Of a DNA stretch of 64,000 nucleotides, positions 4,611 through 60,755 are shown piece by piece. The stretch is from positions 62,001-126,000 of the forward strand of contig NW_015162019.1 of assembly GCF_001447785.1 (NCBI RefSeq), read 5' to 3'. Source of the stretch: Gekko japonicus (lineage: Eukaryota). Each line of letters begins with the position of its first letter. The stretch's first letter is position 1. The notes beneath the pieces were generated by a model that saw nothing but the letters and a program-made list of their open reading frames with translations, ran no database searches and was not told the origin of the DNA. The position numbers and the translations under genes are program-made.

Positions 4611-5956
4611 TAGTTTATATAGTTACCATTTGTTTGGATTCAACTGGAAGAGGGACATAGTGAAGGAAATAAATATGTCAAAATTGGAAATTCATGTATC
4701 CTTAACTGTGGAATGCTGAGAGTAATTAAGTGAGACCCTGCCATTACACTCCATCTGTCTCCTCTCAAGCATGGAGGAGACTTTACAGCATCTTCTTCTT
4801 TGAAGTGGGGTGACTGGCTGTGTAGAGTTATCTCCCCCATCCCCAGATCAGAAAAATACATACCAATCTACCATTCCAAATTACATTACATTCTACTATT
4901 CATTGTGTTACATTACAATCTACTATTCTAATGTATTATTCCAAATAAGAAATAAAATAAAGAGGACGTATGGCCCTTTTGGGGGATTGGTGAGAATACA
5001 GATGTAAGGGCTGAATGAGGTTAGCATATGTAGTGAGACAAGAAATCAATATCCCTGTTAAGTCTTGAGATTCCATTGTTCTGAGTGTTGTAATAACTTG
5101 CAACACAGCAATTTCCCTTTCTAGTCTGTTCATGAAGTTCCTTTGCAATAAAACAGCTACTTTGAGGTCACCCAATGAATGCCCTGGAAGGCTGAAGTGT
5201 TCTCCTACAGGTTTCTCAGTCTTGTGGTTCCTAATGTCAGATCTGTGTCCATTTATCCTCTGGTGTAGGGTTTGTCCTGTTTGTCCTATGTAGAGAACTG
5301 AAGGGCATTGTTGGCATTTAATGGCATATACAATGTTAGAGAAGATGAGCGTGTGAATAAGCCTGAGATGGTGTAGTTGATGTTGTTAGGTCCAGTGATT
5401 GCGTTGTCTGGGTGTATGTGGCAGCAAAGTTGGCATCTGGGTTTATTGCAAGCTCTGGTCCCAGTGTCCATGTTCAAATTACATGTTATATTATTGTGGG
5501 TGAGGAGTTTTTTGAGAGTGGGGGGGGGGGCTGCCTGTGCACAAGAAAAGGTTCCCCCCCCCAGTACTTGTGAAAGACAACTGTTTTGAGTTCAGAGCTG
5601 TATGTGACCACCAATAAGTATATCAACAAATCACACGCTCCTCCAAGGCTTCTGACTGGCTGCTGTTAGAAACAGGATGCTTGGCCGGATGGACCCTATT
5701 TGGTCCAATCCAGCAAGGAAACTCTCACATCCTCAGCCCCTTGGGTGCTGCAGCTTCATCCCTGACGGTGTTTGGATTTCAGCAGAAACATTCAGCATTT
5801 AAAAAGCAATCTCTAATCCCTTGACCTTGGAATCCGCTCCAGGGCATCACAGGACATAATTAGTTTTGTTATCAGAATGCAAAGCTATTGCAAGAGGACA
5901 GGCGGTGCTGAGGTCTGGCTCTTCCTAATCCCAGGACTCTCTCGACCAAACAAACT

Positions 5957-10866: not shown

Positions 10867-11210
10867 TGGGGCAAAGTAGCTCAAGTGCTTAAGACGCTGA
10901 ACTGCAGACTGGAAGTTCAGTAGGTTCAACAGTTCGAGACCCGAGATGGAGTGAGCTCTCGTCTTTGGTCCCAGCTCCTGCAAACCTAGCAGTTTGAAAG
11001 CAAGAAATTGCAAGTAGGTAAATAGGTACCGCTGCGGTGGGAAGGTAATAGCATTCCGTGCGCCTCGGCGTCTAGTCATGCCGCCCACATGACCATGGAA
11101 ATGTCTCTGGACAGTGCTGGCTCTTCGGCTTGGAAACGGAGATGAGCACCACATCCCTGGAGTCGGATTAGACTAACTTTCGAGCAAGGGAAACCTTTAC
11201 CTTTACTTTA
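10867..11210 (+). mobile_element. Sauria SINE (Squam1), near full length
   Basis: tRNA head, gtgagctctcgtc body, aataggtacc, (ACCTTT)n tail. Confidence 0.9.
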
Positions 11211-12492: not shown

Positions 12493-12547
12493 GGTGCATT
12501 GGGTGTGGTGACTCAGCTGACACCACTCAAGAGGAGTAGAAGGCGAC

Positions 12548-13103
12548 CATTGGTCGCCCGATAAATTAGCGAAATGGTATCCAAATATGTCCAAGAACTG
12601 TTGGAAGTGCAAAAATAATGTAGGCACCTTCTACCATATGTGGTGGAGGTGCGCTATGACCCAACGATATTGGCATAAAGTACATAAAATACTGGGCGGT
12701 ATATTAGAAATAGAAATACCATATGCTCCAGAATTCTTCTTGTTAAATGTGATACCAGAGAAATATACAAAGGAGCAAAAATATGTTTTGGGATATATAA
12801 TCACGGCAGCACGTATCTTGTTTGCCAAGAACTGGAAACAAGGGGGAATACCGTCGAAAAAAGAATTAATTTCTAAAATGCAAGAAATGATCGAAATTGA
12901 TAAACTGACCACACTATTACAATACAAAGATACAACGATATTCTTTAATAGGTGGGGAATGTTTTATAAATGGTTAAAGAAAAGTTAAAATACCAAATCT
13001 GATGTTGTGGGACTCTGTAAGTTGTTATATTTGTAAGTAGAACTTGTATACATGATGAAATGTATTCAAAAACTGAATAAATATGACTTAAAAAAAAAAA
13101 AAA
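12548..13103 (+). mobile_element. 5'-truncated L1: ORF2 C-terminal Cys-rich domain, 3' UTR and poly(A)
   Basis: Open frame with CWKC...GTFYHMWWRC...YW and ITAARILFAKNWK, stop at 12988; aataaa and A-tail at 13090-13103. Confidence 0.9.
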
Positions 13104-27529: not shown

Positions 27530-27735
27530 GTCTCTTTTTTATCGTTCTTATTGGAACTGTACCAGACTCTTTCACCAAGGAGCTCAGGGCAGCATACATG
27601 GGTGTGTTCACCTTCCACCTCCCCCAATCCACTTTATCCTTGCAACAGCCTTGTGAGGTAGGTTAGGCTGAAAAAGTGACTGGTTCAGGGTCATCGAGTG
27701 AGAGTTGTGGCTGAGTGGGCATTTGAACCCAGATC
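27530..27735 (-). mobile_element. Squam3-type SINE
   Basis: gtgaggtaggttaggctga, gtgactgg, gggcatttgaacccag. Confidence 0.8.
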
Positions 27736-27996
27736 TGTGCTTGATCTAGGAGTGGATGGGAAGTCAGTGGAGGGATATGGCTTCTACAACAAGAGGGACA
27801 AATGATTTGGAACTGAACTCACCCAGAGACACATTGTACAGTGAGAGTCTTGGTGACTCTAGTGAGAGTCATGGCTGACTGGGCATTTGAATCCAGGTCG
27901 CTGCTGGATCTGGGAGCAGATAGGCAGACTATGGAAGGATATGGTTTGTACAACAAGAGGGGCAAATGATTTGGAACTGAACTCGCCCAAACACAC
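27697..27996. repeat. Diverged tandem duplication, period about 164 bp
   Basis: tacaacaagaggg(a/g)caaatgatttggaactgaactc and its upstream sequence occur twice. Confidence 0.85.
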
Positions 27997-29186
27997 ACAC
28001 ACACACACACTCCCTCACAGCCAACATTTCTTGTGAGGAAGGACAAAGGAATCTGGAGAGCTTGTGCTCCCTGACAATCCGTTGTACACACATAGTGCCT
28101 TTAAATGTAAGCTGTCCTGAGAGCCTGTTCGCGGGGAGGGTGGGATAGAAACCCAATAAATAAATAAATGCTTTAAAAAATGACAACAACACTCTTGCTA
28201 CAAAAGCAAGAGGCGGTTCCTGTAGAATATTTCAGCGAATGCACCACTGCAAGTATTATTCTAAAGCATACCACTTCCTTACTTTTCACAGCACATGAAT
28301 GCTCCAGCAGAGAAAAACACAAGAGGAAACTAAAGCAACGGGGGCTTTGAATGCAGAAGGAAGCCACGTCAGGCGATGGCATCAGAAGGGCTGGGGAACC
28401 CTCCGACGTGGTGGAGCTGCCCACGCAGGGAACACAGAAGCCAGAGCCAAAAAGAATCACCGGCACCCACACGGAAAGGACAAAAGTGAATCACACGCAC
28501 GCTCGCTTGGTCCACACAGCCCCTGCAGAGCCTCTCCTTTTATTCTTTTTTAAAAGAACAGCACAAACTGATCTCTTTGAGCTGCCTTTGGTACAGCTGG
28601 GAAGTTTTGCCACCTCCTGGGCCAGGAAGGAGTCCTGACCCAGTCCCCTCCCAGGATCGGCCACAAGGCACCAAAGATAAAGAGCCCCATTTTCGCCAAT
28701 CCACATAAGTTGTCAGGACCTGGGATGGGAGGCTGGTGCCCTGATTGCTTTTGTGATTGGAAGACAGCCATAAACCGCTGGCTTGGTACAGCCTGAAGCA
28801 TTCAGTCACTAGCTACATCCTGATGTTTTAATGAACTATTTGTAAGTATTTCAGTTAATGGGTGCATGGACGTTTTTAGCAGATATAAGAAAAGAAACGG
28901 GGGGATCCTTCAAGGTCCACCTAGCTCCGCATCCCAATTCCCACAGTGTGAGCCTTGGGAGGGGAGGTTACTACTTCACAATTCTGACCAGTCTGCAGAT
29001 GACTCTTCTTGGAGGTGGAGGCTTTTTATGGGTAGGATACAGTGATCTCTTTTCCACATTCCCCTCCTCCAGCAGTCCTTTCCAACTCCAGGAAAGTTTA
29101 ATTCCCAGAATCACGGGACCCACGTGCACTAACAACCACACTCGTCAACTATGAACTAATAAAACTAACTAACCACACTCGTCAAG

Positions 29187-31579: not shown

Positions 31580-31719
31580 AACCGTTCTGGAAGAACAATA
31601 CAGTAATTAGTTATCTTCGGCATCCTATAAACCAGTATTTTCCATGTTAAACCGTTCTGCAAGAACAATACAGTAATTAGTTATCTTCAGCATCCTATAA
31701 ACCAGTATTTTCCATGTTA
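31580..31719. repeat. Tandem duplication 2 x 70 bp
   Basis: Two copies differing at two positions. Confidence 0.95.
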
Positions 31720-32111: not shown

Positions 32112-33510
32112 CAGAAGTCTCCAACCTTTCGAGCCTAGAGACACTTCTGGAACTCTGACAAAGGGCAGTGGGCACAATTGTAAATATTACAAGAACTGGG
32201 ACTCCTGGTGTAAAGCAGTAGATAAAGGCAAAGAAACAACAAGTGTGTAGCTGTTACAAGCATTTAACTGCAATACATCCAGAATTATTTTTTTCTTTTC
32301 TTTTGTGTAATGTTTAGAAATTATATAATCAAATAAACAATAAATCTAAGCAATTTCGGGTAATTATTATAGTCTCGGGTTTAAAAATTCATACAATCAC
32401 AGAAGCTCACGGCAAAAACTTCTGCTATTCACAACGTACAATTCACAATTGCATAAAGATGTTCGCAGACGCAATACAGTTTAAAGGGACAGTTTCAAGG
32501 AACACATTCTTTACAAGTTAAAGAAACAGTTCCAAAACAGTTCAGCTTCCACAACAAATGTTGTGAAAATATACAAACTAGAAACTCACTCCTGAAAATT
32601 ATATGAATTTCAACATAAGACTTAAATCATCTGCAACATGGAGTGGTTTCTTTTGCCATCTGAATCCTGCACAGACTATGTGTCTCCGAGGTAAAGAGAA
32701 CGTTTCGACAAACTTCTTCAAGTCGCACAGAAAGATTCAAAGAATTCAGAAGGCACTCATATCGGAACCCGTTTTTCATGAAACATAATTGTAGCTAGTA
32801 AAGCTTAACACTTCCTTCAGTATGAATGACTAGGTTCTCCATGTTACAGATGATTTAATTCTAATACTGAAACTTGTATAATTTTCGGGAGTGAGTTTCT
32901 AGTTTGTATATTTATGCAACATTTGTTCTGGGAGCAGAACTGTTTCAGAACTGTTTCTTTAACTTGCATTGTAAAGGACGTATCGCTTGAAACTGTTCCT
33001 TTAAACTATATTGCGTCTGCGAACGCCTTTATGCGATTGTGAATTATATATTGTGAACAGCAGAAGTTATTGTTGTGAGCTTCTGTGATGGTAAAAAAAA
33101 TTAATCCTGAGACTATAAAAATTACCCTGAATACTTTATTGTTTATTTGATTGTATAAGTTATAAACATTACACAAAAGAAAAGAAAAAAATAGCTCTGG
33201 ATGTATTGAAGCTAAGTGCTTGTAACAGGCTATACACTTGGTATTTCTTTGCCTTTATCAACAGTTGTAAATATGGCTGTTACAGGGAGTGGCGCCAACC
33301 ACAAAACGGCAGGTACTGAGGTTATATACAAGTCTAACAGTAACCCTTCAACATTTCAGGCAGAAGCTGTGTTGCCTTTTAATCTGCACAGCCAATCAGA
33401 AGCCCTGCTGGGAAAAAGCTGCACCTGGCTCTGCCCACTTTCTATAAGCATTTGGAAGGCACCAGGAAAAGTGCTGGCAGGTGCCATGGGCACCACATTG
33501 GGAACCCCTG
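32112..33510. mobile_element. hAT MITE family B split by a Penelope-type insertion
   Basis: Ends cagaagtctccaacc ... ttgggaacccctg. Confidence 0.7.
32188..33260. mobile_element. Penelope-type fold-back insertion with about 420-bp inverted arms
   Basis: Arms 32221-32643 and 32837-33259; TSD acaattgtaaatat (32174-32187) / acagttgtaaatat (33261-33274); hammerhead-like remnant in the spacer. Confidence 0.75.
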
Positions 33511-36192: not shown

Positions 36193-36233
36193 GTCTGACT
36201 GGTGGTGGATCCCCAGAATCTTGGGCAGAAAAA

Positions 36234-36480
36234 GAAGAAGAGAAGAGGAGATTGGATTTATACCCTTGCCCTTCACTTGGAGTTTCAGAGCGGCTTACAA
36301 ACTCCTTTCCCCCTCCCCACAGCAGGCACCCTGTGAGGTAAGTGGGGCTGCAAGAGCTCTGAGGGAAACTGCTCTTTCAAGAACAGCTCTGACAGAACTA
36401 TGGCTTGCCCAAGGTCATCCAGCAGCTGCAAGTGGAGAATTAAACCTGGTTCTCCCAGATTAGAGTCTGCGCACTTAACC
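36234..36480 (-). mobile_element. Younger Squam3-type SINE subfamily with (TTC)n tail
   Basis: Matches 38727-38985 and 55103-55381. Confidence 0.85.
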
Positions 36481-36589
36481 CTCCCAACACCCTTTGACTG
36501 GAGATGCTGGCATGGTGGCAATGGAACTTGGAGCCTTCTCCACACAAAACACGTGCTCTACCACTGAGCCATGGTCACACGAACATACA

Positions 36590-37513: not shown

Positions 37514-38726
37514 GTCATACCTCCATTTAGGACTGCACAGGCAATTCTTCCAGGATCTACCCAGTTCCAAAATGTGAATAAATGTTCTCCGCAGTGGAAT
37601 ATTCTCCGCAACTAACCATCAAGGAACGAGTGTGCTACTGCCATGCCGTAGTTTATTTTGCACAGTTCAGTTCTGCATCATAGCAAGCACGTATTACCAA
37701 CAGCATCTACCCCTGAGGACCAGTGGAATAAAATCAGAAAAAAAGTTGCATAGTGTCCCAACAATATGGGGCACTTGTGAAACAACAAGAAACAGTTTCT
37801 GCTCTTTTCTGCCTTCCACTTTGCCAGTGCCAAAATATTCTAGTCACAGAGGAGACACAACACAGAAGGGGATTTACATTATTTGGGAGAATCAGTTCTG
37901 CTTTGAAGGATGAGCATGAGAAGGCAAGCATCCAGGATCTTCTCCCTGACTTCGAGGCACGCCAATACCACCGTCTCATCTTGATATGAGGCTCCAAGGG
38001 TCACTTGACCAAATCTCAGAGCCTCATCTCCTGACTCCACCTGCCAAATCGCCTGCAAGAAGGACTGGCAGCCGCCAAGTCTCTAGCTCGGGGATCCAAG
38101 GGAGGTCCGTCAGCTGCCAGCTTCCACATCGCCGCTGCTCCTGAAAATCGTGATCCGACTCATTGGGGCCAAGAGAGGTGCCAGCCGCAGCTGAATTTGC
38201 GGCAGGGAGGCGAGGTGTGTTGCAAGACTTAAGAGACAGCTTTCTTCGACAGACAGGCCTTCTCAGCAACTGAGCGGAGGCCGTGCCAATCTTTTCTTAT
38301 AAAACAGGCAGGGGGGTAAATAGAGAGTTGCATCTGAAGATTGCCCTTGGCCCTGCTGCTGAGAAGTGTTAGGCACACCCTCCCTGCCCCCCCCCCACCA
38401 CCACTGGGCTGTGGTTCTGGCCAAGTGAAGCACAGCTCGGCCTCCCACAAGATGGTTTTTCCGCAAGCGTGCCCAGCATTCCTCAGCATGTTGCATAAGG
38501 CAGAATATGAATAGTCCCAACATTTATAAAATGGATATCCCTGAACCTGTAAAATATGGGGGAGGATGAGGAGAAGTTATTGCCATTGAAGGGTTTTTTC
38601 CCGGTAGCATCCCTCTCACTTGGTTAAACTTTTGCTACATGCCATTAATTTCTCACCCACCGAGTCTGAGGGCCCATGGGGACCTTGGCAGACCTCCCCC
38701 CCTTTCTGTGCTGAGAAATAAGCTTT

Positions 38727-38985
38727 AAGAAGAAGAAGAAGAAGAGATTGGATTTATACCCCGCCCTTCACTACCCAAAGGTGTCTCAGAGCGGCTTACA
38801 AACTCCCTTCCCTTCCCCTCCCCACAACAGACACCCTGTGAGGTAGGTGGGGCTGAGAGAGCTCTTTCGAGGACTGCTCTTGAGAGAACAGCTCTGAAAG
38901 AACTTTTGACTGATTCTAGGTCACACCAGCAGCTGCATGCGGAAGAGTGGGGAATCAAACCCAGTTCTCCCAGATTACAGTCCGG
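38727..38985 (-). mobile_element. Younger Squam3-type SINE with (TTC)n tail
   Basis: (GAA)n then attggatttataccccgccc. Confidence 0.88.
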
Positions 38986-39849
38986 AAGGGCAATGTGGGT
39001 AGAGAGGCCACACTGGAAGGGCTTGAAATAACATGGATTATATTCTACCCCTTGGAAAACTAAAGCAAATGATAAAATCTTGCAGTTTTCAGTAAATGTA
39101 CTTCACAGGAGAACACTTCAGGCTAGTGCTATGGACTTCAAGCTGTTTTACAGCAATCTGCACCGCTGCAGAAATACACATAGCTTATAGGCAGTAGCCA
39201 GTTGCAGTTCTCTCATCCCAAGGATTCAGGAGTGAGCTAGGCCCAAAGACAAAGCTGAGATAAAGTAATATTTTTTTTCCGTTTTGTTATTTTTATTTTG
39301 TTTTGTTTTTTAATTAATCAGCCTAAAATTTTGCCCTGGATCTTCTGGAGTGGGGTTTCATTTTGGGAGGATGCAGGTGTAAATGAACAAGACAGTGCTT
39401 GTTAATATCTCATAGTATCTTACTTCTTCAATGATGGCTAGAACATTTTAAAAAACCAGAAAGAGAACTGACATGCTTTGGATTCCACTCCACGCCAGCA
39501 ATCAAATTCTGTACAGAGAGACACAAACTACAGCTGAAGCTCCTACAATTTTAACCTTCAGGAAGCATAACCCTCTGTTCTCTTGCCAGCAGTAAATCCC
39601 AGTCATGTATACAGTTATTCAAAGAAAAACCTTTCCAGACCTAAAAAGCACAAACAGGGGTTTTGTTTGTTTGCGCCCAAGTGGCCCTACGCTAAAGGTG
39701 CTGGCTTCCACTACCTAATGAAATGTGACACACAAAACCTGACAGCACCGATTCTTTCTCCTCAACTAATTTAGAGTGCTTTCTGGCTGCAGCGTTTGAG
39801 CGCTTTAACTTGCAGTAAACCAACATCTTTGCATCCCATTCCGCGAATG

Positions 39850-44830: not shown

Positions 44831-46619
44831 TTGCTTGCTTGGATGGCTTTTCGGGTACCAGGTAAAGAACATTTTACTCTAGTGAGCTTTCACAGGCAAC
44901 ATGTTTTTCTGCTGTTTGTTCTTAAACATTTATTGTTGTTTGGATGTGGGGGGGTGTCATATGTTTTAATTTATGGCTTTTACATTTTTATTTAACTTCT
45001 GTTGAGGCCATGCTGCCTTAAGAGCTCAAGCTGAACAGTGGGGACAGGAACAGTCAATTAAAATAAAACATGAGCATAAGAGGTCTGATCTCTACAGGGG
45101 ACTGGGGAATGGACCACGTAAACAAACACACCTCTGAAAAAGCTGGCAATTCTCAAAGAGTGACTCCAACTCCTTTTACTGATGCCAAAACCTGATTTCT
45201 GCCCCTTTCAACGCCGATGAAGGGAAGGGAACAGCACCAGCAGGGCGAGCAGATGGAAAGATCAAACAGTTTCTCCCAGCAGCCACAGTTTCTCTCTCCC
45301 TTACACACAAACACACACATACACAAAGAGCAAAGAATTCCCTGGCAAGCTAGTGTTACTGGGTGTGCTCTGCACGGACAGTACAGACATACTGTATGTG
45401 TGTGGCTCATTTTGCTCTGGAAAAAATTAGGTAAGTGCTCAGTGAACAGCAAGCTACAAGAGCTAAGAAGGAGGAACAGACACTCTTGTGCTATATCGGG
45501 AGGTGGGGGGTGGGGGGGGACAGGGTGCCGGGCAGGCTTCACAGACAGTGCCGACAGCCGCAGCCAGCTACTGCAGACCCACAAAACCTGCCAGCCCCTC
45601 CCAGCCCCTGTGGAGAGAGACAGAGTGTTCCCACTCTGCACGGCCAAGTGTTTCCCCCTCCCAAGCAGATGTGTGCAGCTGCCGAGAGAGGACAGGGTGG
45701 CACCCCCACACACACCAGCCCTCCTCCAGACAGATCCAACTGGGTGGCCTTCATTGGACCAGGAGACAGAGGTCGTGGGGCTGGAAACGGACACCCAAGG
45801 ACTAGGCTTACGGAGGAAGCCATAACCTGCAGCCTCGAGACATGCCACAGGGCAGGGGTGACCACGTTCCACCCCTGCCCTGCGGCTGAAGAGTCCGGTG
45901 CTTCCCCAAGCAGTAAGTGCCACTTATCTCCATCTGGGATTTCCTGAACAGTGGGCGCAGGATGCCTACGGCTCCCCAATGGCTTCCATGAACTCTCCTT
46001 GTAAAGGCTGCCTTTTAAAGGGTGAAGGAGCTAGGCATGTTTTGCGTGAGGAAGAGAAGACTCGGTGGGGGCACAAAATCTCAGAAGGTGGGGGGGCACT
46101 TGAAGCGGGGTCTTCACAAAGATTACCACAATGATCGGATAGGTTCACGAGCGATGAGATGTGGCCCAAAACATCAAGGCCATTTGAGACTGTGTTAGCC
46201 AAGTGACCCCTCCAAAAGCCCCATCAAGCAGCAGACTGTTCCACTCAGTGCTAGCAGGACCCCCCAGGATTGGCCCTGGAGACAAAGCCCAGAGGAGAAG
46301 ACCAGGAAAACGACAGGAACACAGGGGAGGGGGTGCACCTGTTGCTCTGGCAGATGAGAAGCATCCCCAGGGTGCTGCATCTTCCAATTATGACTCCAAG
46401 ACACGCTTCTCCAGAACACCGGGAAGGGAGGGGCGCAGGTGGCAAATCATATAAACCACATGCAGAGATAAAGAGGCCAGAAGGCTTTCACTGAACTTTT
46501 CATTTGATTATAAATCAAAACATCGCTGCACCTAACAGGAACGAGCAAACCAGGCCGCAGCAGTGGAACAAAGGCCGGAGATTCTGCTTCAGACTTGCCA
46601 CTTCAGTACCTTAATGTGG

Positions 46620-48456: not shown

Positions 48457-50284
48457 GGGACTTCCGGGTTATGGCGTCATGCAGGCAGACACATCTCCCG
48501 GACATCCTGGGGATGTAAACTGCACACCAGCGTGTGGGAGGGGGTCCGACAGGTCGCGACCCCCCCCGGAGCCTTGGTAAAAGGCTCCCAGTCAGGGGGC
48601 TTTTGAGGGGCGACCTCTTCGATGAGCCAGAGAATTGAGGTGCCTTCACCCCAAAGGTCCTGCCGCTGAGTGACCACATGGTACGAGTGCTGCTGACCAG
48701 GACAAGCGTAGGAGATCGGGCGAAATAAACGATGACGAGCGAGGCCGAATGGCCAACAACGAACTGTGAGTCGGATTGAAGCGAGCATGAAGATATAAAA
48801 AGAAGCTGCCCCCTCTAAAGAGCGACGGGAAAGCAAGCGGGGGAGGGGTCCCTCCCAAACGCATAGACGAAACATAGAAGGAAAGAGGAGGGAGCGGAAA
48901 AATAAGCGTTTAAAACTGTTTTGAGAGACTTACCAGAGCGCAGAAAAGCGTTCGGGCGAACATCAGAGACTTTAGCAACTTTTTTGAAAAGTAAACAAAT
49001 CCAAAAAGATGGCGGGAAGAAAACGGAGAAAGAGAAGCTGTTGACATCGAAACTAGGGGGCAGTCCTCGAACAGATGAGGTCACTGAGCTCGCAAAACTT
49101 TTAGCTGACTCCCTGCACCCTCTGCTGGACGAGATTAAACGATTGTCAACAATTGGGCAGAGTTTGGCAGAGCAGCAGATGCAGCTGACTCAACCCTTAA
49201 AAGCAACAGAGCAAATGAGAGAGAAGGTGAAGGAAATGGACATCACTACTAAAAAGGTTAAGAAAAAGGTGCAAAAGCTGGAAATGAAGCAAGCTACGGA
49301 AGAGTCAAAGCTTTTACAGCTACAAATGGATAAAGCAAATTTGGTCCTACGGTTTCAAGGGGTCCCGGAAATTAAAGGAGAGAATCTGAAGCAACAGCTG
49401 AGTGAAGCATTAGCCCCAATGACAGATTTAACAGCGGAATACATTTGCAGCGAGATGAATGTGGTCTACAGGTCCTATTCATCATACATCAAGAAAAATA
49501 ATCTGCCTGGGGAGATAGTGGTCAGATTCTCGAAGAGACATGTGAGAGATGCTATTTTGAAAGCAACTTCGGGAACACCCTTGAAAATTGGGGACAACAA
49601 CATCAGGATTTTAAAAGACATTCCATTTGACATAAGATAGAAGAGAAAGAACTATAACGAATTAATCCTTTTCTTACAAACAAATGACATTAATTACAGG
49701 TGGTTAACCCCAGAAGGCGTCATTTTCAAGCTCAATGATAAAAAAGAAAAGATTGACTCTGTTTTTAAAGCACGCGAATTTCTGCAGACGCAACTTGGGG
49801 AACCAGAAGAGGGCAAAGGGGAGGAAGAAGAAAGCAAATCTGATGGTGAGTTGGGCTTGGGGTCTTCGGACGAGGACTCCCCCTCTGAAAAGGGGGCAGC
49901 TGCCCCCAAAAGCCCATATAAACTGAGGATTAGAAAGGATAAGAATAAATAAGGGCTAAAGGACTCTGATTTGTGCCTGAAAAAAATGTGGAAATAACTT
50001 GGGGATGCTCTGGGATTTTCTTTAAACAGTTAAAGGGATGGTTACACGATATTATCTTAGCATAACCGACTAAATTCATTGTATTATTAGTAGCTTTTTG
50101 AAAATAGCATGATGTTAAGCTGATGTATTGATCTCCTACTCTTGGGCTTTTAGTTAGTTGTGGGTCTTTTTTCTTTCTCCCCCTAGATGTAGTTCCCTTC
50201 CCCATATTTTCTGTTGTAGTTTTTGTAGTCTGAAAAAACACACAATAAAAACCTCCCCCCAGGGGATGGGGAAAAAAAGAAAAA
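48457..50284 (+). mobile_element. ORF1-only L1 derivative (HAL1-like), 5'-complete, inserted in an old CR1
   Basis: Starts gggacttccgg...atggcg; CpG-rich 5' UTR; ORF1; about 300-bp 3' UTR with aataaa and A-rich tail; 15-bp TSD gaaagacctttctag (48442-48456, 50285-50299); no ORF2. Confidence 0.88.
49009..49952 (+). pseudogene. L1 ORF1p (coiled coil, RRM, CTD), disrupted
   Basis: LRFQGVPE, VYR, LPGEIVVRF, IRILKDIP, YRWLTPEG motifs; inferred 1-nt frameshift just after the ATG at 49009; one in-frame TAG at 49638-49640. Confidence 0.88.
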
Positions 50285-53925: not shown

Positions 53926-55102
53926 CTTTAGGTGCCACTATTGCTAACATCAAACTCATGGTCCCTGCAGACCTAGGATTGCGGAGCCTGGGACTGTAAT
54001 GCTTCTGCACCGGCCTACAAACCTGTTCCTCAAGGGGAAGCTGTCTTCATGGGAAGGCCTTGCTTAGGGCCGATGGCAGATCCTGTGTGGAAATCTGGAA
54101 AGGAACCCTGGTGTTTGTTTTTCTCCCTTTCCTCCCCCAGGCTGGCAAACACAAAACAAAAACAAGCTGCAGAACAACCACTTGCGCTTTTGCAACACAG
54201 ACAAGATCTTGTTGAAAAAGCGAAAAACAGGACCAGAGCAAAAAACAAGGAAGGAACCGAAAAGAGAGAGCTCAGAGCTGAAGCCCGATTGCCAGGAGGC
54301 GACAGCAGAAAGGAGGCTTCAGCTGCTAAAGGTCAGGTCAGCACGAAGGAGGAACATGTTGGAGTGCAGAGGGGGGAGGGCTGACTCAGCCAAGTTCACC
54401 CCCTCGCATTATCTTGAGATCTGGTGGGGATGTTAAAAAGACACTTGCAAATTAGTATGCAGAGCCTGAGGCAGTTTATATAATACCTCTAGAAGGGGAA
54501 GACACGTTCTCTAACTTATGCATGGTTGTCTACAAACTCCAGAGAGTGCATCTTAGGGACACAGCAGGGGTGGGTTGGGGTCTTTCTGTAGTACTTCAAC
54601 CTGCAAGGCTGTCCCTCCCTGCCAACCTCAGGTGCCCAACAAGAGACGTGCTGAAAGGCGTTCCAGCCTGTCACAGGTGCAAGGAGAAAACCAGCAAGCC
54701 CAGAAACTCAGACATCTGGTGCTGAATTGCAAAACCCAACTCAGTCGGCTAAAATTAAGCAACGAAGCCAATTCTCCCATTCTGCCAGCTACATCAGCGA
54801 TCTGTCCGCGACATCTTAATTGGAGTCAGGTTCTGGTTTTCTCCAACCTGTAAACACAAGCAGCTTCTAGTCTCGCTTCTCTTTGGAGGCTTAAAATGTC
54901 TGGATCTTGAATGCTGCAGGGCACATCTCCTGCATTATGCCCACCTCCACCCTGTGATTTAAGATCTGCTAAGGAAGCCTTCCTGAGGGTGCAAATTGTG
55001 CAGAGGCCAGTTTTCCTCCAGAGTCATTCCCGTCCTGATACTCTGGTGCACCTTTCTATTCAGTGCCCATTGAACTCATGTGCATGCACTCACTCCCCTC
55101 TC

Positions 55103-55381
55103 TTGGTGTAGCGGTTAAGTGCGTGGACTCGAATCTGGGAGAACCGGGTTTGATTCCCCACTCCTCCACTTGCACCTGCTGGATGACCTTGGGCAAGCCG
55201 TAGTTCTGGCACAGCTGTTCTTGAAAAATAGCAGTTTCTGCCAGAGCTCTCTCAGCCCCACCTACCTCACAGGGTGTCTGTTGTGGGGAGGGGAAGGGGG
55301 TTTGTAAGCCGCTCTGAGACTCCTTTGGGTAGTGAATGGCGGGGTATAAATCCAATCTCTTCTTCTTCTTCTCTTCTTCTC
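55103..55381 (+). mobile_element. Younger Squam3-type SINE with (TTC)n tail
   Basis: A-box tggtgtagcgg, B-box ggtttgattcc, L2-like tail tgtaagccgc...ggcggggtataaa. Confidence 0.9.
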
Positions 55382-55723
55382 TGCCAGGGATTTCCGTTTC
55401 AAGAACAACCTGGCAGGCATGGAGGCGAAACAGAAGCTGGCTAGAGAGGCCTGAAAGGAACATCTGCATGAACTGCCCTTTGAGATGAGATCCAAGCAAC
55501 CTGATGGCACTGGGGCGCAAATGCAGGCACCCAGAGTTCAACTGCCTGCTTTCAGCCACCGATCACCTGCACAGTGGTCACAGAGAGAACTGGATTCACA
55601 CCCAGAAACCACTGCCCACGAGAAATATTATGTAGAATCAGGGCAGATGGATGCACAAACAGGGAAGGACCACCACCCCCAGTATGGATGCACACACATC
55701 TAAGGTTACACCTCATGTACAAA

Positions 55724-59164: not shown

Positions 59165-59544
59165 TTGTACTATAATGTAGCACTTACTTGCACTACCCAA
59201 TCCTCATTAAAAATGTTTGTGGGAAATGTTCTGTTACTAACTTTTGCAAATTACTTTGATGTACAGGATTTTTCCTTTTCTTATTGCGGGTCATTTATTT
59301 GTATCAGTGTCGTGCTCCCGTTGCTGTGATCATAACCCTACAATAAACCCTCCTGGTACACAGTCTTCTATGAACGAAACACAAAACCTGGGGCTAGTGG
59401 CATGCCCTCCGCACATCTGGATTCCCAAGTCAAGACCTAGCTGCTGTCACCTACTTCCAAAGGGAAGCATGACGCAAAAACAAAATGTCCTTTTGTTGTT
59501 TGGGGGTGGGGTGGGGGATGTCATTTGGCCTTTGTCAAACATTC

Positions 59545-60755
59545 ACCAACCAAAAGGGAGACTGCAACCAAGACATCAGGATGAGATTGAGACTGGGAAG
59601 GACAGCCATGAAGGAGATAGAAAAGATTCTTAAGTGTAAAGATCTGCCACTGGCAACCAAGATCAAGATAATGCATACCATAATATTCCCCATTACCATG
59701 CACGGGTGTGAAAGCTGGACAATGAGGAAAGCCGACAGAAAGCAAATTCATTTGAAATGTGGTGTTGGAGGGGAGTTTTACGGGTACCACGGACCGCCAA
59801 AAAGACAAACAAGTGGGTTTATTTATTTTATTTATTTCATTCCATTTCTATACCGCTCCTTCCCGGAGGCTTGGAGCGGTTTACACATATATTTAATCAT
59901 CTAACTAGGGCCACATACATTTCAAGGGACCTTACCGGGCACCTAATCAGTGTAGGTCTTTTTCCTTTCTGTGGCGGGTCTTGCTGGAACCAAGCGGTAG
60001 TGTCTTTCTTTTTCTCCAGCGGGGTCTGTTCTCTTCGGCTTGGCTCCCCTGGAATGGCCCTCCGTGGCGCGCGGCTGAGCGATGAGTCGCACTGGTCTCT
60101 GTCCCGCAGGCTCTGACCACGCTCACATCACCACGCCTTCCACGCTGCCCGGACCATGCCTCCACGAGTTGTCTGCTGTTTTTTCGCCGCTGATCCGTCG
60201 CCATGTTCTTTCTGCCGGCTCGCTCGTTGTTCGCCGCATCGCCCGGCCACCGGTGCTGCCCTCCAGTATTGGAGGTAGGGTGCCCCCCACTCCTAAGGAG
60301 TGGGTACCCATTTGTCTAATTGTCCTTTTAAGGGCTTTCGAGCCACTGGGTGGGCGGGAGCTAGGACAAGGGCCGGGAGCTCACCCCGGCCGCGGTGGGA
60401 CTCGAACATCTGTTACAGCTGTTCGGAGATAGATTACTTGCAGGCATTTACTGCCTGCGCCACCGCTCCCAGCGGTTCTAGATCAAATCAAGCCTGAACT
60501 CTGCCTAGAAGCTAAAATGACTAAACCGAGGCTATTATACTTTGGCCACATTATGAGAAGACAAGAGTCACTGGAAAATGGTAGGAAAAGTTGAAGGCAG
60601 CAGGAAAAGAGGAAGATGGATTGACTCGGTCAAGGAAGCCACAGCCCTCAGTTTGCAAGACCTGAGCAAGGCTATTAACAATAGGATGTTTAGAAGGACA
60701 TTAATCCATAGAGTCTCCATAAGCTGGAAGTGACTTGACAGCACTTTACACACAC
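59545..60755 (+). mobile_element. RTE-clade (BovB-related) LINE 3' part, interrupted at about 59818-60470
   Basis: GDCNQDIRMRLRLGRTAM...FPITMHGCESWT...MWCWR...TNKWV | LDQIKPE...YFGHIMRR; tail agtgacttgacagcac. Confidence 0.9.
59818..60470 (-). mobile_element. Composite SINE-like retroposon: Sauria-like tRNA head + CpG-rich body + L2-type tail
   Basis: Minus strand: A-box tggcgcaggcag, B-box gttcgagtccc, Sauria-like ggggtgagctcccg...ctcgaaagc...aaatgggtacc; tail tgtaaaccgctcc...ggagcggtatagaaat(AAAT)n. Confidence 0.8.

Follow-up and report, generated by a model that had tools for sequence, protein, structure and literature searches.

A retroposon of 654 nt, inserted into an older LINE fragment of Gekko japonicus (assembly GCF_001447785.1, contig NW_015162019.1; the window, meaning the whole stretch of DNA analysed, comprises 64,000 nucleotides), is rather likely to be a recently made copy of a long SINE that has a tRNA-type head and no coding function, from a lineage related to the Sauria (Squam1) SINEs, long separated from them and dependent on an L2 LINE. 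This reading is drawn from one copy in 64 kb, relatives in gecko genomes, Repbase and Dfam lying outside the comparison. The evidence consists of the single duplication around the element, a diverged but still folded Sauria-like 5' part, an L2-type stem-loop at the 3' end and the intact state of the copy throughout.

Boundaries, Unity and Age of the Insertion

Head, body and tail constitute one composite retroposon, a conclusion supported by both flanks (Table 1). When the insert was excised in silico, the reading frame of the split LINE (N-K-W-V-L-D) was rejoined exactly. From its protein motifs we take this LINE to belong to the RTE clade, and its right-hand fragment matches a second RTE fragment within the window, at 27129-26854 (E 4e-17). 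The RTE flanks are depleted in CpG, with observed/expected values of 0.38 and 0.17 compared with 0.82 for the insert. The AA of the 3' copy of the duplication, read on the minus strand, extends the tail repeat and may have provided priming microhomology.

The three modules are unlike in composition and structure, as would be expected if the head of a SINE, a piece of other origin and the 3' end of an L2 had come to lie side by side through independent adjacent or nested insertions. However, one duplication encloses all three, no internal direct repeat brackets the body (of nine repeat families listed, none occurs at both body ends), and no internal poly-A or microsatellite was found within the element. 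Chance neighbours are thereby ruled against, and we regard this alternative as largely refuted. Two proposals of a sequence-only reading of the same DNA, that an RTE element is split between TNKWV and LDQ and that the insert is a single composite, are thus borne out; the element that it had placed at 59818-60470 is confirmed, with its limits corrected to 59820-60473.

Table 1. Features of the inserted element and its flanks (positions in the window).
Feature	Position	Strand	Basis or remark
Whole inserted element, 654 nt	59820..60473	-	Single 4-bp duplication around it; empty site restores the RTE frame
Target site duplication GGTT, at the element's 5' end	60474..60477	+	Flank comparison
Target site duplication GGTT, at the element's 3' end	59816..59819	+	Flank comparison
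Older RTE-clade LINE fragment before the insertion	59530..59815 (left limit approximate)	+	Translation ...RVPRTAKKTNKW
Older RTE-clade LINE fragment after the insertion	60478..60735 (right limit approximate)	+	Translation VLDQIKPE...
tRNA-like head	60392..60473	-	Folding and pairs
Acceptor-like helix of head	60466-60460/60398-60392	-	Predicted pairs
D-like hairpin of head	60458-60440	-	Predicted pairs
T-like helix of head	60425-60420/60408-60403	-	Predicted pairs
Pol III A box, differing from the assumed consensus at one position	60451..60462	-	Sequence and motif scan
Pol III B box GTTCGAGTC	60399..60407	-	Motif scan; lines up with the Sauria copies' B box
Folded central domain common to Sauria SINEs	60286..60391	-	Identity 66-70% (82-87 nt aligned); base changes leave the hairpins in place
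Body of untraced origin, ~330 nt	59955..60285	-	No match; composition
85-aa ORF, probably incidental	59947..60204	-	aacATGg context; no homologue
AT-richer LINE-type 3' region, ending in L2-type stem-loop 59880-59852	59838..59954	-	Fold and by-eye match
Simple-repeat tail (AAAT)n	59820..59837	-	Sequence
First T5 run past the element, candidate Pol III terminator	59799..59803	-	In flanking RTE DNA

The state of the copy suggests that it is recent, as had been proposed earlier. All 51 pairs in eight predicted helices are Watson-Crick, many of them containing CpG, a count biased upward by the choice of the helices from the predicted fold (two of them also overlap by 2 nt). For the 84 paired positions, a random divergence of 5% would leave all pairs intact about 1% of the time, which serves as a rough guide only. 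CpGs are intact alike in head, body and tail. Unbroken helices and intact CpGs throughout place the copy near its source. Since a young copy with a head 30-36% away from the local Sauria SINEs has nonetheless kept its structure, a source lineage of its own is implied; this combination is the main argument that more copies, that is, a family, would exist.

Head and Central Domain

The promoter boxes at the start of the minus strand, already pointed out in the sequence-only reading, are present; they were named against a consensus that we take to be the usual one for Pol III A and B boxes. Folding of 60473-60356 gave a z of -5.5 relative to 60 dinucleotide shuffles. ARAGORN called no tRNA gene (0), and Rfam made no call for the head, with matches only at E 5-10; SINE heads usually escape both programs.

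Homology to the Sauria SINEs extends over the first ~190 nt of the element (to 60286) and was seen with 3/3 of the copies in the window, in agreement with the earlier description of a divergent Sauria-like 5' half. Local alignment scores against the three copies were 91, 72 and 57, compared with 32-33 +/- 5 and maxima of 50-54 for shuffles (200 each), and nhmmer recovered the same copies (E 2e-8 to 2e-4), with no other sequence of the window falling below E 1. The head is 64-70% identical to the Sauria copies (122/175 and 110/173 aligned positions), whereas two Sauria heads agree at 144 of 174 positions and the Sauria copies are 84-92% alike over their full lengths; the comparison covers the three copies in the window. 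These copies lie at 11894-11541 (-), which sits inside Squam3-like sequence and has a 14-bp duplication; at 10869-11209 (+); and at 26822-26569 (-), which lacks its 5' end and lies directly against the (CAA)n terminus of the RTE fragment 27129-26825.

The consensus fold of three sequences contains 23 pairs, five with two-sided changes; with three sequences only, and three of the five changes lying in poorly aligned columns, two pairs (columns 5:21 and 46:85) are trusted. From Sauria to the element, pairs change from A-U to C-G in a hairpin, from U-A to C-G in a helix and from A-U to G-C in the closing helix of the head, which is G-C-ended in the element and A-U-ended in Sauria copy A. A fold kept across 30-36% divergence points to long selection as an active RNA rather than decay in place; judged by its sequence, the element is a relative of the Sauria SINEs and not a decayed local copy of one. 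In addition, the central-domain motifs CCACCCAG (60353-60346) and AAATGGGTACCC (60313-60302) were seen by eye in the same order after the head of SP6, an L2-tailed SINE of sea urchins. This order suggests that the Sauria central domain is possibly a remote form of a SINE domain of ancient origin, and is a hint that the domain may predate its link to Bov-B.

Composition of the Body

The first ~50 nt of the body, past the end of the Sauria homology, are still folded (hairpin 60274-60261); beyond 60234 the sequence is unstructured, with z between 0 and +2.4 in most scanning intervals, and consists of 62% purine and 12% T. At 59954 the T content changes from 9.7% to 25%, which is taken as the start of the LINE-derived 3' region. 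Only 3 of 2546 intervals are as T-poor as the body, and two of these belong to this element. The element holds 42 CpGs, with an observed/expected ratio of 0.82 (0.92 in the middle) compared with 0.32 for the window; the Sauria copies in the window are likewise CpG-rich (0.69-0.95), and the CpG/TpG ratio of the body, 1.06, compares with 1.08 in the presumed L1 5' region at 48460-49000.

No second copy of the body was detected in the 64-kb window by blastn, self-comparison, Smith-Waterman, nhmmer or tblastx, the best score being 42 compared with 39-40 for three shuffled bodies, so that the earlier statement about a middle section with dozens of intact CpGs and no match elsewhere in the window stands. 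The body also gave no match to the LINEs of the window or to Rfam, phages and plasmids. Two candidate sources were rejected: a bacterial origin, for which 4 of 297 candidate stretches passed weakly, over 29-47 residues, and similarity at the DNA level never exceeded 29 nt, and the L1 5' region of the window, which scored 26.

The sense strand is free of TTT over 678 nt, the longest such stretch on either strand of the window (next 573), and this stretch coincides with the element. Among 2000 shuffles at 15% T, however, 74-87% were also free of TTTT and 11-22% free of TTT, and the missing T runs are therefore largely explained by low T content. The earlier remark that no TTTT occurs over ~650 nt is accurate, while its value as a sign of Pol III transcription is reduced. 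Low T is the notable feature; it is compatible with Pol III read-through and is also seen in the L1 5' sequence of the window, which is nearly as T-poor as the body.

The L2-Type Tail and Its Probable Partner

The tail has the previously described combination of an L2-type stem-loop and AAAT repeats (59837-59820), in place of a BovB-type tail and (ACCTTT)n. Its stem has 8 bp (59880-59873/59859-59852; pair probability 0.90-1.0), and the motifs flanking it match, by eye, the L2-derived regions displayed in supplement 2 of PMC7983390. The best non-self match of the tail in the window is the L2 tail of a Squam3 copy, with a score (38) not above the shuffle range (39-44), so the L2 assignment is based on motif, position and fold. 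An L2 LINE would accordingly be the copying partner; that L2 ORF2 proteins recognise their own 3' stem-loop is established (PMC4176376).

No partner L2 was found in the window. A decayed LINE at ~21400-19750 (-), with a Pfam RVT_1 match (E 8.5e-7) and motifs from which we take it to be of an L2-type clade, does not carry the tail of the element. As to target sites, Sauria copy A has a duplication of 14 bp, none was found for Sauria copy B, and that of this element, 4 bp, starts with A. Squam3, an L2 client, is described with scarce duplications and (TAAA)n tails, which favours an L2 partner here. A TTT that lies 8-10 nt before the duplication, partly like the Tn-TA signature of RTE, and the lack of a duplication for Sauria copy B weigh in the other direction, the element being seen at one site.

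On the minus strand, the first 12 nt of the element (60473-60462) are complementary at 11 of 12 positions to the 5' arm of the tail stem (59880-59869), and the 8-mer 60469-60462 is identical to the 3' arm. An interaction in which the 5' end pairs with this stem was considered and rejected: the duplex is possible (-20.7 kcal/mol), but its probability in the full-length ensemble is 0.0.

The earlier proposal that a Sauria-type SINE had switched its partner from RTE to L2 is not borne out in that direction. A recent derivation of this kind is disfavoured because the head is too diverged from the local Sauria copies, and the opposite polarity fits equally; the L2 tail may be an older state than the Bov-B tail.

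The 85-aa Open Reading Frame

The basic 85-aa ORF in a good Kozak context (A at -3, G at +4), which had been singled out in the sequence-only reading, exists as described, but a meaning for it is not supported. ORFs of this length were reached in 11.9% of 2000 shuffles of the whole element and in 8.9% of those of the body; the three codon positions are alike in composition, with no codon-position bias; and the antisense strand carries a longer ORF (116 aa). Four ATGs lie upstream, one of which starts an overlapping 62-codon frame. Homologue searches with the 85-aa ORF returned no candidate at 46-149 aa and none that held among 74 at 150-2000 aa, the antisense ORF likewise gave 0 of 20, and exact look-ups (0/4) and the PDB (0) gave no match. 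No Pfam family matched any of the nine frames overlapping the element (44 proteins scanned). A HMMER search with a 122-aa frame against 1.84 billion representatives gave two matches, both rejected as tandem-repeat artefacts summing 7 and 12 stretches. As it is uncertain that these libraries contain ORFs from lizard repeats, the blanks weigh against a conserved protein and do not bear on copy number.

The ORF is probably accidental, as expected from base composition. That the element encodes a small basic peptide aiding its own mobilisation, or one captured from a host or viral gene, is very improbable in our estimate: beyond the start context, it is favoured by the coincidence of the ORF stop with the composition change at 59954, and it is opposed by the shuffles, the codon composition, the longer antisense ORF, the upstream ATGs and the lack of a homologue in these searches. 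Moreover, Pol III RNAs are uncapped. A remnant of ORF1 is not likely either, as lepidosaur L2s are reported to be without ORF1 (PMC13343379).

A Model for the Element and Its Alternatives

In the model that we favour, RNA polymerase III would start at the 5' end from the internal A and B boxes and read through all 654 nt, in which the sense strand offers no T run, giving a transcript of ~675 nt that would end at the T5 run 59803-59799. The ORF2 protein of an L2-clade LINE, acting in trans, would bind the 3' stem-loop, nick the target and prime on the AAAT repeat, and the RNA would be copied in, leaving a short duplication. The 85-aa ORF would remain untranslated, and the body, of untraced source, would be carried along as a passenger. 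The tail and the module of head and central domain would have been brought together by the kind of module exchange known for SINEs; exchange of SINE tails and bodies is documented in PMC5786205. Transcription of the element by Pol III is thus a suggestion from its sequence. The length counts against this model: without the repeat it is ~635 nt, close to the upper limit for SINEs (75-662 nt).

A rather unlikely alternative is a one-off chimera made at insertion, in which an L2 reverse transcriptase copying an L2-tailed RNA of body and tail switched to a SINE RNA related to Sauria and copied its 5' part. The single copy in 64 kb and the abrupt change from folded to unfolded RNA near 60234 would fit such an event, as would the single duplication, and template switching is an accepted source of hybrid SINEs (PMC4824008). 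It would nevertheless require two RNAs that were both young, CpG-rich and TTT-free and that occur nowhere else in the window; the donor of the head would also have to be a SINE not listed so far, 64-70% like the local Sauria copies; and the folding runs ~50 nt beyond the end of the Sauria homology. Somewhat less probable still is an L2 reduced by internal deletion to its 5' UTR and 3' end, to which a SINE head was added; the body would then be the 5' region of the partner LINE. Here the LINE-5'-like composition of the body, with low T and a CpG/TpG ratio close to that of L1, is suggestive, and SINE bodies formed when a head joined a bipartite LINE have been published (PMC5786205); reports of this kind, however, are confined to RTE, Ingi, Vingi and R2. 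The body matches no LINE of the window, and none of the nine overlapping frames matches APE, RT or any Pfam family. This idea had also been raised in the sequence-only reading; its chief support falls away, since lepidosaur L2s are reported without ORF1 and the ORF is therefore not an ORF1 start, and a 5' UTR origin of the body survives as the possible part.

The SINE reading favoured above may also be extended, doubtfully, by supposing that the element represents an active sister lineage of Sauria that kept the older L2 tail, that Sauria itself arose when an L2-dependent ancestor captured a Bov-B tail, and that the partner L2 contributed its 5' UTR as the body. If so, the horizontally mobile Bov-B LINE would have supplied the Sauria tail, and the element, as the first SINE of this construction, would combine the two ends of an L2 and give access to an L2 promoter that is intact and active in geckos.

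Other Features of the Window

The window is repeat-rich vertebrate DNA. Squam3B3-like SINE copies, with the Squam3B3 insertion and a (CTT)n tail, lie at 55090-55400 (+), 38710-39010 (-) and 36210-36510 (-), an assignment made by eye against consensus rows in PMC7983390 supplement 1; Squam3B3 is reported as major in two Gekkonidae species, and these copies by themselves would place the host, probably, among the geckos. At 48460-49640 (+) there is an element, presumably L1-like, whose 5' region is rich in CpG and whose ORF1-like frame is frameshifted and without a Pfam match. A GIY-YIG endonuclease fragment at 4936-5385 (-; Pfam E 2.7e-5) is probably part of a Penelope-like element, and a LINE 3' fragment at 12521-12988 (+) has a zf-RVT match (E 1.2e-4). 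A local duplication of 426 nt occupies 32218-32643 and 32837-33262, and short tandem duplications with periods of 164 and 70 occur at 27697-27997 and 31580-31719. At 45153-46030 both strands carry several long frames without stops (up to 256 aa) that overlap one another and match no Pfam family; this region is possibly an exon or a low-complexity repeat.

Comparison With Known SINE Families

SINEs are defined in PMC3531059 as elements of <1 kb with a LINE-derived 3' region and a simple-repeat tail. For a SINE family, at least 100 interspersed copies per genome are expected. With internal A and B boxes in a folded tRNA-like head, 654 nt, a stem-loop and (AAAT)n, the element fits the tRNA-derived SINEs (SINE2), represented by one copy in 64 kb. 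Of the known families, the Sauria SINEs (Squam1), partners of Bov-B, share with it the tRNA-type head, the boxes and a folded domain of ~105 nt. It differs from them in the D-arm and the anticodon region and in length (654 nt compared with ~345 nt), and the alignment stops at 60286, Sauria ending in a Bov-B tail and (ACCTTT)n and the element in (AAAT)n. The ~12-nt duplications starting with T and the Tn-TA signature that PMC13295347 gives for Sauria, together with the (ACCTTT)n end, also differ from the short A-initial duplication at the one site here, though a TTT does lie 8-10 nt upstream of it.

Squam2 (Anolis SINE 2) is likewise a squamate Pol III SINE with an L2 partner, Anolis LINE 2 (PMC3747384), and was present in all squamates tested according to PMC10702118, where the lengths of Squam1, 2 and 3 are given as 190-350 nt; length alone sets the 654-nt element apart from it. 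With Squam3 and Ther1 (MIR), which are CORE-SINEs, the element shares the L2-derived 3' stem-loop motif, a (TAAA)n-like tail and scant duplication. Those SINEs, however, are 218-271 nt long and have another head, the element differing by eye from the Squam3 consensus rows, whereas the element has no CORE 5' half recognisable by eye, and its 5' part did not align with the Squam3 copies of the window, nor did anything outside the last ~50 nt. The element is thus not a member of Sauria, of Squam3 or, by length, of Squam2. Other named squamate SINEs include SINE2-1_ACar, SINE2-2_ACar, 5S-Sauria and SINE-1_Pmo.

A description of a ~650-nt, Sauria-related, L2-tailed gecko SINE was not found in the literature as far as its text was available, the sequences of Repbase, Dfam and SINEBase being outside that search; in our judgement there is a substantial, though minority, chance that the element is already listed in one of these databases. 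The element seems to be a mobile element of a familiar type, in a variant that is not listed. A similar construction is seen in ERE4B, WALLSI2, IdioSINE2 and SINE2-1_ACar, which combine a shared 5' module with various LINE tails and unexplained middles; according to PMC5786205 their bodies trace to RTE or Vingi 5' UTRs, whereas here the tail is L2-type and the body source untraced.

Views on how SINEs work are left unchanged by the element; SINE tail exchange is already known. If it belongs to a family, however, this would be a fourth and unusually long type of squamate SINE, whose young copies would provide presence/absence markers for gecko phylogeny and in which covariation would show the Sauria central domain to be a structured RNA. 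The order and mechanism of partner switching would also become testable, as one folded head-and-domain module would be served, in the same genome, by two unrelated LINE machines, Bov-B in the Sauria SINEs and L2 in this lineage.
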